Shown one piece after another: positions 1,428 through 7,504 of a DNA stretch of 64,000 nt. Source of the DNA: a virus (taxonomy: Duplodnaviria; Caudoviricetes); the IMG/VR virus record IMGVR_UViG_3300010885_022465, positions 532 through 64,531 of that record; one strand, 5' to 3'. The translations under genes were made by a program, and so were the position numbers. Under the pieces are notes generated by a model that saw nothing but the letters and a program-made list of their open reading frames with translations, did no database searches and was not told the origin of the DNA. Each line of letters starts with the position of its first letter. Position 1 is the stretch's first letter.

Positions 1428-3462
1428 ATTTATCTAATATTCTAAGAACTTTTCCAGTAGAATCCACTAGAGCTAGTTTCATCCTGTAGTTGGTCTCTTT
1501 ACATTGCACATACCTTTTGAATGTCTTCACCTCAGCCTTAGCCTGTTTAATGTTCTCGGGTTCATACCTTGAATAACATTGAGCATTTATGTATGAGAAC
1601 ACAATCGCGAATATGCAGTCATCATAATCGTACCTAGCATCCGCTGCCTGGTATCTTGTTTGTCTATGTGAGCTTGCAGCTTTCAAATCTTTCTCTACGA
1701 ACGTCTTTAGTTGCTCCCAAAACCATGGAATATTTATTTGTTCGCCATACCCCTCTATTAACTCTTCTAGTTTTGCTAATATACGTGGCGCTGTATTCAC
1801 TTTATTGGATATACCAAACCATTTACCACCATGTGTTTTTAAGTACTCAGGAAGCGATGAATTTGACGTAAATTTGTGCTTAAATCCTAACATTTCCTGG
1901 AAATCTATGTGCATATCACCGATGTTATTCTCCACTAATTCCTTGATTCCACCCCTATTTTCTTGGTCATAATACAAAGATTGCAGTAAAACTTGCAGAT
2001 ATGTCTCTTTAAATTTCTTTTCTCTATGAAAAACTACCGATGCTACGGAGTTTGTTAGGGAATCCCATACGGCACTACACATTTTTGAGTGTCCTGTCTC
2101 TGAATTGATGGGGTCAGTACCTTGATAGAACCTATGTACCCAGCATTCTTTAGCTGGTGGGTGAGTTATTACTACTGTTGAGGTCATAACGTGGTCTCTA
2201 TCTCCTGTGCTCATCCATTTAGCCCCTATAATTCTATATGGAACGTATGAATCAGGTGTAGGTTGCAGTACATCGAATATAGGTTCGAAGTATCCGTAGT
2301 CAATAGGAACTTCCATACCATATATTTGATGCAACCTGTCATTACAATAGTTTACAGGAACAAGAGTTTTTGATTTACGCAAGAACATATCGTCAATGGT
2401 AATTGGGTATGCCTGGTGAAACTGAACTTTAGCAATCTCTCCCTGTCTTGTGCCTTCTTGTGCCTTGTATGCTTTAATCTCGTTATTAATAAACTTATCT
2501 GTCACCCCTCTTCGTGCATATGCGTTAAAGAACAATGGTATAATTCCATACTTAAAGTTTCTTTTCTGCCATTCGGATAAACACTGCTTAAACTCGGACT
2601 CAAATACTGAACCCCCTTTGTCCATCTCTCCACCTGTACCCCAAGCCATGAATTGTTGTTGCATTATCATCTCGTCTTGTTCAGGGTCGTACTTAAATAG
2701 TGCAGGTCTACCTTCACGCATCATCTCACCAAAGATTTCAAACAATCCAATCTCATCGACAAACACGCATGACGGAGAACCCCCATTGATTGCTGTGACG
2801 CTAGGACTATCTACCTGAAACATTGAAGCACCCCCTTCATCTTTACCTTTCTTGTCCCCTTTTTTCTCCATGTTCATTAATGAAGCTGTCCAGTTCTTTA
2901 CTTCTTGAGACATAAAGGCTGGTAGTTTTGTGAACGCCCACTTTACTTTATCACGAAATATTTCTTCCCCCTTGTCTTTGGAGTGGGTAATGAATTTTAT
3001 GAAGTATGATTTGTTTAGGTTTACGCGTTTCATACCTGCTAGGCACATGGTAGTTGTAAATCCAATCTGACGAGCCTTACCAATCATTGTTGAGTATCCG
3101 CAGTCGTATAGGAATAACAGTATCTTTTGTGCATCCCATGCTTGGTATTTAAGTTTACCATCTAGCGCAGTCTGTTCTTTTATCCATCCGTATTTATTGC
3201 AGAAGTATAGTGTGTTGTCATTACATTTCTGTATCTCATCCTCTAGCCATTCTATCTGTTCGGACTCTGTGTTGAAGTCTTGAATTTCCGTTAGGTCATC
3301 AAGCAACTGTTCTGCATGTAGGCAATATGTTTCAAAAGGTTCGTATGTTGTTCTGTACTGATACCCTCTATTCATGGAGTCTATCCATTTTATGAATTCT
3401 TCAGGATAGTCAAATTGTTTATGTGATGGATACCAGTCTGTTGTTTCTAGTTGTTTAGTCAT
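1426..3462 (-). CDS. terL: terminase large subunit
   Basis: Walker A GKARQIGFTT, Walker B VFVDEIG, coupling motif GTG, nuclease motifs GTDPIN and DDCIFA. Confidence 0.9.
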   Translation of the reverse strand: MTKQLETTDWYPSHKQFDYPEEFIKWIDSMNRGYQYRTTYEPFETYCLHAEQLLDDLTEIQDFNTESEQIEWLEDEIQKCNDNTLYFCNKYGWIKEQTALDGKLKYQAWDAQKILLFLYDCGYSTMIGKARQIGFTTTMCLAGMKRVNLNKSYFIKFITHSKDKGEEIFRDKVKWAFTKLPAFMSQEVKNWTASLMNMEKKGDKKGKDEGGASMFQVDSPSVTAINGGSPSCVFVDEIGLFEIFGEMMREGRPALFKYDPEQDEMIMQQQFMAWGTGGEMDKGGSVFESEFKQCLSEWQKRNFKYGIIPLFFNAYARRGVTDKFINNEIKAYKAQEGTRQGEIAKVQFHQAYPITIDDMFLRKSKTLVPVNYCNDRLHQIYGMEVPIDYGYFEPIFDVLQPTPDSYVPYRIIGAKWMSTGDRDHVMTSTVVITHPPAKECWVHRFYQGTDPINSETGHSKMCSAVWDSLTNSVASVVFHREKKFKETYLQVLLQSLYYDQENRGGIKELVENNIGDMHIDFQEMLGFKHKFTSNSSLPEYLKTHGGKWFGISNKVNTAPRILAKLEELIEGYGEQINIPWFWEQLKTFVEKDLKAASSHRQTRYQAADARYDYDDCIFAIVFSYINAQCYSRYEPENIKQAKAEVKTFKRYVQCKETNYRMKLALVDSTGKVLRILDK

Positions 3463-5168: not shown

Positions 5169-5341
5169 ATGTATTTTAGTTGTTTAGGTTTACTACTCAA
5201 AAGAACTGTTACACATAAGAAAGATAACTCTATCTCATATACTCTACCATCAAATCTTGGATACCTATTAAACAATACACTAGGAATAAGATACCATGCC
5301 TGTAGGTTATACCATGCATCTAACTTAACATTTCTTTTCAT
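5165..5341 (-). CDS. small hypothetical protein (58 aa)
   Basis: MKRNVKLDAWYNLQAWY...; ATGA overlap with next gene; promoter at 5375-5382. Confidence 0.45.
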   Translation of the reverse strand: MKRNVKLDAWYNLQAWYLIPSVLFNRYPRFDGRVYEIELSFLCVTVLLSSKPKQLKYI

Positions 5342-5374
5342 ATTACTTGCTTTATATTAAAAAATTTAGTATTG

Positions 5375-5382
5375 CAAATATA
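5375..5382 (-). promoter_or_regulatory. -7 promoter element for packaging operon
   Basis: CAAATATA = TATATTTG on -. Confidence 0.6.
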
Positions 5383-5467
5383 ATACAATTTACATGTAAA
5401 AAACACATTTCCTCAAAAGTTTGTACGCATAAATACAAAGCAAATTGTCACCACAAAAAGCAACACT

Positions 5468-6072
5468 AACTTATTGACAATCAACTACATAACTCCCCGT
5501 GCTATATATGTTCCTTTTGGATAGTCCTTAATGGCTAGTATGAGTAATCCCATTACGAATGCCCATATAGATGCAGTCCTAGAGCTCTAATCAGGTACCA
5601 ATATGTAAAACATACCCCTCCCCTTTTTAAAAACATCCTTACGTAACTCACTGGTAATTAGGTAAATTTTTGAAATACGTCTGTGGGTTTTTTGTGAAAA
5701 ATATGCGGTACGTCTGTGGGGGGCTTACTCGACCACATGTATCCCCCACCTCCTTCAACCGAAAACCGAACATTCTGATTATCAACACTTTACGATCGTG
5801 TTTTTCTGCTTTTCACCCTTAATTATTTGATTCTCACACACTTACACACTACCTAAGTTGTTCACAGGTGTTAATTTATTGATACTCAGTTAGTTGAGGG
5901 TGTTTAGTGGTGTGTTACCCCCGCCGAAAATTCACCTTATTTCAGTACTTTTGTGGCTACTTTTTTACCTTATTTTGTCCCGTTTTTGCCTGTTTTTTGG
6001 GTACTTCTGAAATTATTTTCACTTTTTTTAAATTATTTTTTATCGTCATATATCCTTGATTTTCAGTTTGTT
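5468..6072. repeat. Array of palindromic AA-N5-TGA-N3-TCA-N5-TT boxes
   Basis: TGA at 5475, 5776, 5828, 5880, 6057 plus a degenerate copy at 5652; three copies exactly 52 bp apart. Confidence 0.7.
5676..5720. repeat. 12-bp direct repeat TACGTCTGTGGG x2
   Basis: 5676-5687 and 5709-5720. Confidence 0.85.
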
Positions 6073-6140
6073 ATCCTCATGTACGCGCGCGCGAATCCAA
6101 CTTCAATTCAAATTAAATTTTCAAATTAGAATTTATATAG

Positions 6141-6148
6141 TATATTTG
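6141..6148 (+). promoter_or_regulatory. -7 promoter element at start of early arm
   Basis: TATATTTG with AT-rich upstream region. Confidence 0.7.
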
Positions 6149-6151
6149 TCC

Positions 6152-6702
6152 TGTCCCTCAGTCAAAACAACGACACACAACAGGGCACCACGCTTGCATC
6201 GGTAGGGTGGTTATAGATAAAGGTTTGTGTATGGTACGCTGTACATATAACGAATATAGGAAATTGCTATGCACGAACTGACAGAAAAGGTTATGTTGCT
6301 TAGGGTGGATAAGTATGTTCGGACTTGAAATAAGGTTTACGAATTTGTTGGCAAAACGACAAAGCAACCGATATTATTACGTGTACATGGGCGTTTAGGC
6401 GTGTACGTTCCCTAGGGAACACGTGTATATAGTGTAATATTAGGACTTTGTGGCAAGAGGGTGCAAAACGTAAATTATGGGGTGCAATTATTAAGGTAGG
6501 GATACCACACTAATAACGTGTGAATTGTGCGAAGTAAAGGATATAAGGCAATATTGAGTAATTAACACAATTACGTGAAATATAGTACGACTTTACTTGA
6601 AAAAATGTTTCTTGAATTTCTTATATAGTTGGTTTACTGAAGAGTACAAAAGTACGAAACGAACGTGTGAATAATAGTAACACGTTCGTATAAACCTATA
6701 AA
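6152..6702 (+). ncRNA. Candidate large structured ncRNA or 5' leader (~550 nt)
   Basis: No plus-strand ORF of 60 aa or more; hairpins 6187-6211, 6226-6247, 6344-6363, 6407-6420, 6495-6506 (GNRA), 6659-6689; crossing long-range pairings. Confidence 0.55.
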
Positions 6703-6712
6703 ATTATATATC

Positions 6713-7192
6713 ATGAAAGCAAGTATCAAAACATTACAAAGTGCAAACAATGCGTTGAAAGCTGAAAATAAAAGTTTCAGTGGTGCACTTAATGACATTA
6801 AAAAGTTCTACACAAAAGAGGACAAAGTAATGGCAAAAGTTTTATTTCCCGAAAAATTCTCTAAAGAGTGGGAACAAAAAGCATGTAGTTATTTGAGTGA
6901 AAAACCACAATTACCTACAAAAAACAACCCAAACGGGTTAAGTAAAAAACAACTATACCTAAATTCTGAAAAATACAGATTAGAGTTATTGAGAGAAGAA
7001 TTTGAGGCACACGCAATGTTTGAAACGCATAGAGACGAACAAGACGTGGAACAAGCTGAAAAATTAGCTCAAAAAATTACCAATGAAATATTAGAAAGTG
7101 CAGTGTACAAGGACTTCCTTAAAACGAAGAGATACAACTTCTCTCCGTATGCAGTGGGAATGCTAGCACACGCTATGCAAAACAAAAAATAA
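6713..7192 (+). CDS. hypothetical first early protein
   Basis: 159-aa ORF with typical A-rich leader AAATTATATATC-ATG. Confidence 0.8.
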   Translation: MKASIKTLQSANNALKAENKSFSGALNDIKKFYTKEDKVMAKVLFPEKFSKEWEQKACSYLSEKPQLPTKNNPNGLSKKQLYLNSEKYRLELLREEFEAHAMFETHRDEQDVEQAEKLAQKITNEILESAVYKDFLKTKRYNFSPYAVGMLAHAMQNKK

Positions 7193-7234
7193 GTAAGACG
7201 GTCTAACGAGGGGGTTCGACTCCCCCTCTTACTT
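7191..7234 (+). ncRNA. tRNA-like mini-element (acceptor stem, D-loop-like linker, T-arm; no anticodon arm)
   Basis: AGTAAGA-cggtctaacga-GGGGG-TTCGACT-CCCCC-TCTTACT. Confidence 0.55.
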
Positions 7235-7255
7235 CTAATCATTAAATTATACAAC

Positions 7256-7504
7256 ATGAAAAAGTATGCAGGAATGTTATTCTGCATGGCGTTATTGTCA
7301 TGCAGTAAACAAAAAGTAATGTACAAATATGAGTACACTACACCAAAAAGTGTAGAAATAGGTGTAAAAAGTTCGCATCTAGGTGACTACGACCACATGA
7401 CAAGTGGACAATTGGAGGCAGAAAGACTGCACCAAAGAAAATTAGTAAGTATAAACTTTCACGAAGTAGTGTTACATGACACTATGTACGTGTACAATTA
7501 TTAA
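7256..7504 (+). CDS. putative lipoprotein
   Basis: MKKYAGMLFCMALLSC signal peptide with lipobox. Confidence 0.65.
   Translation: MKKYAGMLFCMALLSCSKQKVMYKYEYTTPKSVEIGVKSSHLGDYDHMTSGQLEAERLHQRKLVSINFHEVVLHDTMYVYNY

Follow-up and report, generated by a model that had tools for sequence, protein, structure and literature searches.

Why would a phage keep more than half a kilobase of DNA without a gene between an early promoter and the first gene that it faces? The question is raised by positions 6141-6702 of the window analysed here, which is the whole 64,000-nucleotide (nt) stretch obtained from a 64,531-base IMG/VR record with terminal repeats (IMGVR_UViG_3300010885_022465) minus its first 531 bases. 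An earlier model-made account of the letters (the sequence-only reading) had noticed a promoter followed by a stretch without plus-strand open reading frames (ORFs), and had proposed a large structured noncoding RNA (ncRNA). The description of the stretch is borne out: it opens with a TATATTTG box (6141-6148), and its longest plus-strand ORF has 27 amino acids (aa). What was missed is the main feature of the locus, which by its sequence is a complete type I hammerhead ribozyme (6631-6696, plus strand, 66 nt). We consider it probable that a structured early RNA, a noncoding leader of ~540 nt, is cut from the mRNA by its own 3' hammerhead before p159, the first early gene (6713-7192, plus strand, 159 aa).

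In the mechanism that we propose, a host-type early promoter (the box at 6141-6148) would start a transcript whose first ~540 nt are noncoding, and the last 66 nt of this leader (6631-6696) would fold into the hammerhead and cut themselves after A6690. The upstream product would be a structured RNA of ~537 nt, still carrying hammerhead stems II and III, with a 2',3'-cyclic phosphate at its 3' end. The downstream product would be the early mRNA, which would begin with a 5'-OH and reach the p159 AUG after 22 nt of unstructured leader.

The ribozyme was assigned from its core, three perfect stems, a descriptor scan, folding and an Rfam alignment. Stem I (GGUUUA/UAAACC, 6 bp, 6631-6636/6691-6696) is the open end, stem II (GUAC-AAAA-GUAC, 4 bp, 6644-6647/6652-6655) is capped by an AAAA loop and stem III (ACGAACGUGU/ACACGUUCGU, 10 bp, 6659-6668/6680-6689) by an 11-nt loop; none of the three contains a mispair. 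The core consists of CUGAAGA (6637-6643), GAAA (6656-6659) and the cleavage nucleotide A6690, with 13 of the 13 core positions present (C3 U4 G5 A6 N7 G8 A9, G12 A13 A14, A15.1, U16.1 and H17). The pairs next to the core are all standard, namely G6644-C6655 (10.1-11.1), U6691-A6636 (1.1-2.1) and A6659-U6689 (15.1-16.1). These core nucleotides and adjacent standard pairs are the ones by which hammerheads are recognized by Perreault et al. (2011; PMC3088659). Self-cleavage is predicted after A6690, 22 nt upstream of the p159 start codon, and would leave an A/U-rich 22-nt leader (UAAACC..., 6691-6712, plus strand) on the p159 mRNA; equivalent leaders of 24 nt follow the hammerheads of the related loci L003, L010, L018 and L025. 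The isolated 73-nt segment folds, both as minimum-free-energy (MFE) structure and as centroid, into exactly this three-way junction, with a z-score of -3.44 that only one of 200 shuffles reached.

Two elements of the sequence-only reading are recast by this assignment. Its 10-bp stem at 6659-6689 is real, but its identity is stem III of the ribozyme; as a transcription terminator the hairpin was ruled out, being stem III and lacking a U tract. The AGGTTT/AAACCT pairing (6221/6692), which had been suggested to close the whole domain, is at chance level, and AAACC at 6692-6696 pairs instead with GGUUU at 6631-6635 in stem I. An exact 11-mer, AACGTGTGAAT, occurs at 6515-6525 and 6662-6672, 147 nt apart, and has no other mismatch-free occurrence in the window; the second copy corresponds to the 5' strand of stem III.

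The motif recurs at equivalent places. A strict descriptor scan gave four matches in 665,523 bases (the window, L003, L010 and L025), all on the early-gene strand, against 0, 0, 1, 0 and 0 in five shuffles. Stem II reads GUAC/GUAC, GCUU/AAGC, GUCU/AGAC and GCUA/UAGC in the four matches, all paired and covarying at every variable pair; at position 2.2/1.2 of stem I the window has U-A and the other three have A-U, and stem III is unrelated in sequence and length while the core is fixed. Before their first early genes, L003 and L018 carry GGUUAA-CUGAUGA-hairpin-GAAA-hairpin-GUC-UUAACC, the same layout as in the window. The hammerhead before the first early gene of L018 and L020 (~6070-6136, minus strand) has C for U at core position 4 and may be weakened or inactive. 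Descriptor searches for type II or type III hammerheads in the window and 55 related loci returned none.

A degenerate pattern for the subfamily defined by this stem I (GGUUWA/UWAACC) matches in at least 120 IMG/VR stretches; it fixes stem I and the core by design, which limits their use as covariation evidence. The following figures hold among the matches listed, 147 instances in 120 IMG/VR loci. In 125 of the 147, an ORF of 30 codons or more starts with an ATG 18-26 nt past the cut, the distance in the window being 22 nt; the interval 16-45 nt takes in 138, and nine have no such ATG. Measured from the upstream stop codon to the ribozyme start in the 136 instances whose upstream sequence suffices, the gap has a median of 0 nt and quartiles of -6 and +4; stem I of the subfamily itself includes UAA. 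Because most instances start at the stop codon of the upstream gene, the hammerhead is an ordinary form of phage punctuation. In only 17 instances is the ribozyme preceded by 300 nt or more lacking a same-strand ORF, and it is to this minority, in which the hammerhead closes a long noncoding leader, that the window belongs. The subfamily is widespread in viral contigs and often tandem, with five copies in 3.8 kb of L121 and four copies in L129.

A second kind of module occupies the same position. Between the p159 stop codon and the next gene lies a tRNA-like minihelix (7192-7233, plus strand), seen from sequence and folding, with a 7-bp acceptor-like stem, an 11-nt linker and a T arm containing GGTTCGACTCC; it ends 22 nt before the start codon at 7256. 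The window holds a single copy of this T-loop word, where 0.03 would be expected, and the loose end of an X3 contig at 7193 (X numbers denote public sequencing runs) keeps the T loop with a different stem. Further minihelices lie on the early-gene strand of L010 (~6374-6441), L017 (~5335-5391), L021 (870-933), L023 (1407-1448 and 1972-2047), L051 (6362-6425) and L148 (four copies). They are 41-76 nt or more in length and have no anticodon arm; a 7-bp acceptor-like stem stacks on the T arm, whose T loop is canonical, the whole being followed by (C/U)UAAC and A/U-rich sequence. Their position, both in relatives and in further phage contigs with hammerheads, is ~20-25 nt upstream of early-gene start codons, the place that the hammerhead takes elsewhere. 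ARAGORN called no tRNA at the minihelices of the window or its relatives. Over all sources 26 acceptor-plus-T-arm elements were collected, none of them called a tRNA; for 15 of these an ORF begins 19-25 nt further on. Processing modules ~20-25 nt before start codons appear to be interchangeable in this phage group, a hammerhead in some members and a minihelix in others; for the minihelices, host RNase P or RNase Z is the presumed processing enzyme. The strongest local folding z-scores of the area (-4.1 to -6.2, both strands) were found at 7050-7500, which spans the minihelix and a 9-bp hairpin (7265-7288) falling inside the start of an 82-aa ORF.

At the other end of the leader, the TATATTTG box at 6141-6148 (plus strand) is a putative -7 element of a Bacteroidota-type promoter, whose consensus we take to be TAnnTTTG shortly upstream of the transcript start. 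It is the sole such box near the plus-strand early genes that faces them. The early promoter position given by the sequence-only reading holds up, as the box is conserved across the family and heads the leaders of relatives: equivalent boxes stand before ORF-free leaders of 205-481 nt in L008, L017, L028/L026 and L014/L011, and share an A/T-rich upstream tract and an A/C-rich first ~30 transcribed bases. A minus-strand copy (5375-5382) lies 33 nt upstream of the first minus-strand gene (start 5341), and a copy adjoins that gene in 13 of 16 relatives' zones. The TAnnTTTG motif is slightly enriched in the window (116 against 96.7 ± 9.8 in shuffles, reached by 5 of 100). From the position of the box, transcription would be expected to start a few bases past it, at about 6153-6156. 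The RNA contig of run X19 starts ~15 nt past the box (52 nt before the equivalent of 6209) and the X3 DNA contig extends upstream, which, as contigs only, is a weak hint of a transcript start. Transcription by the host is assumed because no RNA polymerase was recognized among the window proteins.

Between promoter and ribozyme lies the body of the leader (6154-6630, plus strand, the start being set from the box), which is ORF-free by ORF scan and belongs to no known family. Near relatives (~87-93% identity) exist in public runs, of which two of DNA and two of metatranscriptomes, all as contigs, were compared. Conserved blocks (6209-6338 and 6507-6630) alternate in the body with variable, covarying hairpins. 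In these relatives 6209-6406 and the sequence from 6507 onward are conserved, 6150-6208 (59 nt) is replaced by 66 unalignable letters, and 6407-6506 falls below the 80% bar. The differences listed show no codon periodicity in the body (8/5/5 over the three phases, n = 18), against 15 of 22 at third positions in p159. On a single X3 contig, the 206 noncoding bases 6507-6712 carry at most 15 differences, compared with 11 third-codon changes in ~62 p159 codons, which supports stronger conservation of the body than of p159 third codon positions in near relatives. Contigs of the RNA runs do not cover ~6525-6718, the X13 contig of p159 runs from 6719, and DNA contigs bridge the interval; since a gap in contig cover proves nothing, this was not used as evidence.

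The complementary segments quoted in the sequence-only reading all exist where it placed them, and three of its local helices have counterparts in relatives. Hairpin A (6187-6211, plus strand) consists of 5 bp, a G bulge, 5 bp with G-U pairs and a 4-nt loop (folding z -2.06); the loose ends of X19 and X2 contigs, two relative lineages, show the same bulged 5 + 5-bp design in other letters, with two-sided changes at five of ten pair positions and none broken. Hairpin B (GTTCC-CTAG-GGAAC, 6407-6420, plus strand; pair probability 0.92) is met in X3, X13 and X19, where the loose end starts ATCCT-TAAG-GGGAT, amounting to two two-sided changes and one G-U. Hairpin C (6345-6362, plus strand) is the inner part of the stem proposed at 6344-6363 and was identified from folding and relatives; its five inner pairs are kept in X3, X13 and X19 with one two-sided change (6346 T>A with 6361 A>T) and one wobble change (6360 C>T, G-C to G-U), but the outermost and the loop-closing pair are lost. 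Because their stems include G-U pairs, hairpins A-C fit a plus-strand RNA alone. A GGTA-GGGA-TACC hairpin with a GNRA-type loop (6495-6506, plus strand; pair probability 0.73) is predicted by folding.

Long-range structure is another matter. Perfect complementary 7-mers at any distance number 13 in the region against 16.1 ± 5.5 in 300 shuffles, 219 of which reach 13; because this count does not exceed shuffles, the three mutually crossing pairings proposed earlier (6523/6566, 6532/6591 and 6541/6620) and the closure at 6221/6692 carry no weight. Local hairpins show a mild enrichment, with 4 complementary 8-mers inside 60 nt where shuffles average 0.6 ± 1.1 and 8 of 300 get as far as 4. The region folds better than shuffles on the plus strand (z = -2.66; 0 of 100 fold as well) and not on the minus strand (z = -0.91), but the folding energy does not single the region out, because coding windows just downstream reach z = -2.7 to -6.2.

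A further case comes from a sister clade, in which L028/L030, L026, L056, L015 and, more distantly, L003 share a leader of 330-480 nt at the equivalent locus. This leader (minus strand of the loci; L028 6474-6965, L026 4119-4598, L056 394-877, L015 537-1021 and L003 5913-6175) is ORF-free and lies after the orthologous early promoter and before the first early gene. RNAalifold gives it 89 pairs, 26 with two-sided changes. In a five-sequence alignment, which was fitted to the model and holds few sequences, 95.4% of cells are paired against 84.5% in shuffles and 25 pairs show two-sided changes against 11.3 (each 0 of 500), and slid controls pair 35-44%. Rfam gave only chance-level matches to this leader, which we regard as a candidate new RNA motif. 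L003 keeps the body and ends in a hammerhead, whereas L028-type leaders end in a different, stacked-hairpin domain; because the body is kept while the 3' module differs, the two are separable units. The sister-clade leader resembles that of the window in locus, size class, ORF-free state, processing-type 3' module and (C/U)UAACC A-rich leader, but shows no detectable homology to the window body. A covariance model built from it in this work (R1; 331 positions, 76 pairs) found no match in the window with default filters, and with filters off its best score was 5.5 bits at 6684-6712, covering only the 29 nt before the ATG. The type of leader goes together with the family of the first gene.

The explanation that competes most seriously with a functional body is that it serves as a long 5' untranslated spacer, which the hammerhead trims to a short leader with a 5'-OH, the hairpins stabilizing the precursor at most or arising by chance. 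This would agree with the pure punctuation role of most of the subfamily, with folding no better than that of the neighbours, with long-range pairings at chance level, and with the failure to find a body homologue beyond near relatives. However, the promoter could adjoin its gene, as it does in the divergent operon, 33 nt before 5341, yet ~480 nt have been kept; the body blocks are more conserved than third codon positions and the hairpins covary; and the sister-clade body, with its 25 covarying pairs, outlives a swap of the 3' module. We regard the spacer as rather unlikely: since the body is kept, conserved and covarying, it appears to be more than that.

Several observations nevertheless weigh against the released structured leader that we favour. 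The ribozyme scores 20.6 bits against Rfam Hammerhead_1 (RF00163; E = 0.0049 in a 106-nt search), with the core aligned and the 3' half misassigned; this is below the gathering score of 34, and the model is silent in 1.9-kb and whole-window searches. The low score is accounted for by the short stem III that the model expects, and because none of 11 other loci carrying the same subfamily reaches the gathering score either, the model is insensitive here and its silence says little. No tertiary contact between stems I and II was identified in 6631-6696. As for the body, no full-length homologue was found, and its covariation comes from hand reading of three short hairpins in 30-nt loose ends and in the differences listed; two end pairs of hairpin C are lost in relatives, and an MFE helix that competes with it (6308-6314/6343-6349) is broken by 6344 T>G and 6346 T>A. 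The folding z-score of 6141-6702 is locally unexceptional. Finally, the word depth over 6209-6406 and its flanks is 26 and 48 in RNA-library contigs of two studies, against 4.8 and 11.5 for p159, but contig depth ratios are a poor measure of expression, contigs carry no information on RNA ends, strand or level, and an RNA library may contain DNA.

Searches for the body further afield were empty in the collections covered. Blastn against GenBank phages gave no homologue; blastn, nhmmer and tblastx gave no match among 55 TerL relatives or 120 hammerhead-bearing loci; and exact 20-22-nt patterns matched nothing in viral or metagenome contigs. On balance, the released leader is most likely a functional early RNA whose body is under selection as RNA and which, if the ribozyme acts as predicted, would be freed by the cut and persist. 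Our best guess is that the body acts in trans as a host-takeover or anti-defence RNA, because the same locus holds unrelated RNAs in sister phages. An alternative role as a put- or nut-like antitermination element is less likely; the ribozyme cut would untether an element acting in cis. More speculatively, and with distinctly less confidence than in the cut leader itself, the ~480-nt body might represent a new class of large structured phage RNA, made first in infection, freed by the hammerhead and housed in a hypervariable 'RNA slot'; its target would be the host, on which it would work in trans, one possibility being a decoy or sponge for a defence or RNA-processing system. Such a slot might be likened to the swapping of anti-defence protein genes in early regions. 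In the same tentative scheme, the interchangeable modules would reveal what many phage hammerheads are for, namely the making of defined 5' ends ~20-25 nt before start codons.

The form in which the RNA was originally proposed, a free-standing large ornate ncRNA gene comparable to ROOL or GOLLD that has a 3' end of its own and perhaps p159 as a partner, now looks very improbable. Much of its substance stands: the stretch is noncoding, conserved, furnished with covarying hairpins and represented in metatranscriptome contigs. Its size is similar to that of the large ornate RNAs, it is phage-borne, one of its many hairpins has a GNRA loop, and p159 is basic (pI 9.2). What fails is the independent gene. 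Because its 3' 66 nt are a type I hammerhead, the RNA is better described as a leader cut off the p159 mRNA; there is no terminator before p159, where the 3' hairpin is stem III, and the proposed pseudoknots are at chance level. Nor did the suggested kinship with ROOL, GOLLD, OLE, HEARO or group I and II introns find support. An Rfam covariance search of the whole window at gathering score gave no match, a search of 5500-7400 at E <= 10 detected none of these families, which we take to be represented in Rfam, and 6140-6640 at E <= 5 was without any match. p159 itself has no match to an RNA-binding family.

A role at the DNA level, as a replication origin, a packaging (cos) site or an operator cluster, is harder still to credit. 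The region belongs to a divergent ORF-free zone of 1.4 kb (~5342-6712) that separates the minus-strand operon from the plus-strand genes starting with p159; the GC skew changes sign there, an HNH-TerL packaging module is nearby, and relatives keep a similar zone. Against this, the G-U pairs and T-G wobble of the conserved hairpins exist on the plus strand only, the minus strand shows no folding advantage over shuffles, the hammerhead is confined to one strand and oriented toward the gene, and the HNH-adjoining conserved blocks of relatives lie at the other end of the zone. That the stretch is a remnant of decayed early genes or encodes small unannotated proteins is scarcely credible, for the short ORFs that might be cited (27 and 25 aa on the plus strand, a TTG-started 69 aa on the minus strand) are, like every short ORF on both strands, broken in relatives by 1-nt indels at 6333, 6368 and 6376 and the 59-to-66-nt replacement, the differences have no third-position bias, and tblastx against 55 related loci was empty.

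Compared with known systems, the ribozyme is an element of an ordinary kind, and the long RNA that it would release is without a known relative. Hammerheads are common in phage genomes. In polycistronic transcripts of phages and prophages they have been described as intergenic and as tandem arrangements flanking genes, and in a halovirus one stands before the first ORF of an early polycistronic transcript, with the 5' end mapped to no more than 3 nt from the cut; the purpose of phage hammerheads is given as unknown (Perreault et al., 2011; PMC3088659, in the part available). The window ribozyme resembles those described there in core, three-stem architecture and phage intergenic placement, but follows ~480 nt of conserved structured noncoding RNA rather than a gene. 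The nearly fixed stem I, the 18-26-nt spacing to start codons and the alternation with minihelices were not encountered in the same portion of that paper. A literature search of limited extent found no paper on this arrangement.

ROOL and GOLLD RNAs are often borne by phages or prophages and are often found near tRNAs. They are described, in the accessible portion of the source, as many-helix RNAs of several hundred nucleotides with unknown function (PMC12286853). Set beside that description, the window RNA has no Rfam match in sequence or structure, and is a leader joined to an mRNA and ending in a ribozyme. In the mitochondrial punctuation model, tRNA-processing enzymes define mRNA ends at tRNA-like structures. 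Such tRNA punctuation and t-elements, i.e. tRNA-like structures between coding regions of organelle transcripts, are treated in the excerpted part of a further source (PMC1920247). The minihelices of the window and of L010, L017, L021, L023 and others are similar in lying between coding regions; unlike the organelle elements as presented there, they belong to a phage early operon, are short, lack anticodon arms and are interchangeable with a self-cleaving ribozyme.

The locus thereby offers a concrete arrangement of promoter, long conserved structured RNA, hammerhead, 22-nt leader and first early gene. The stereotyped distance to the start codon, the replacement by minihelices and the retention of the body when the 3' module is swapped point to mRNA 5' ends made by ribozymes and to a released early RNA with a role of its own. 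A body that does act in trans would amount to a new class of phage RNA, with uncultured freshwater phages as its source; the public runs with related sequence are labelled as freshwater or lake samples, and small word shares in runs other than the four compared were not drawn on for the habitat.

The surrounding genes are those of a divergently organized phage genome. The minus strand of the window encodes the portal, large terminase, an HNH nuclease and a RepL-like small protein, and the plus strand Erf, an exonuclease, an O-like initiator and a DnaB-like helicase. p159, taken from the ORF list, has no protein-family match and an atlas search gave none above chance; no homologue was found in viral or metagenome contigs. 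Pfam and PHROG likewise gave nothing for the family to which the first genes of relatives belong. An hhalign comparison of the two gave a 31-column match (E = 0.017, probability 2.7%), so that kinship is suggestive at most. A weak ANNA-K...SFS motif and a similar C-terminal FS-Y-V-ML motif were noticed in both, and the first early proteins (p159 and those of L003, L017, L018, L026 and L028) are all small and basic, with pI 9.2-10.0.

Two further observations concern noncoding sequence outside the leader. The other half of the divergent zone (5342-6140) is rich in T, contains short direct repeats as well as a (CG)4 run (~6086-6093), and is conserved in near relatives (X2 contig); in more distant relatives the HNH-proximal part (~500 nt) is the best conserved stretch of the zone, and this half or its HNH-proximal part might be a packaging or regulatory site. 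In L017, an Rfam DUF805b RNA motif (3298-3330, minus strand) scores 47.4 bits, above the gathering score; it lies just upstream of a homologue of the window's 493-aa protein, and similar words precede the same gene in L018 and L008.

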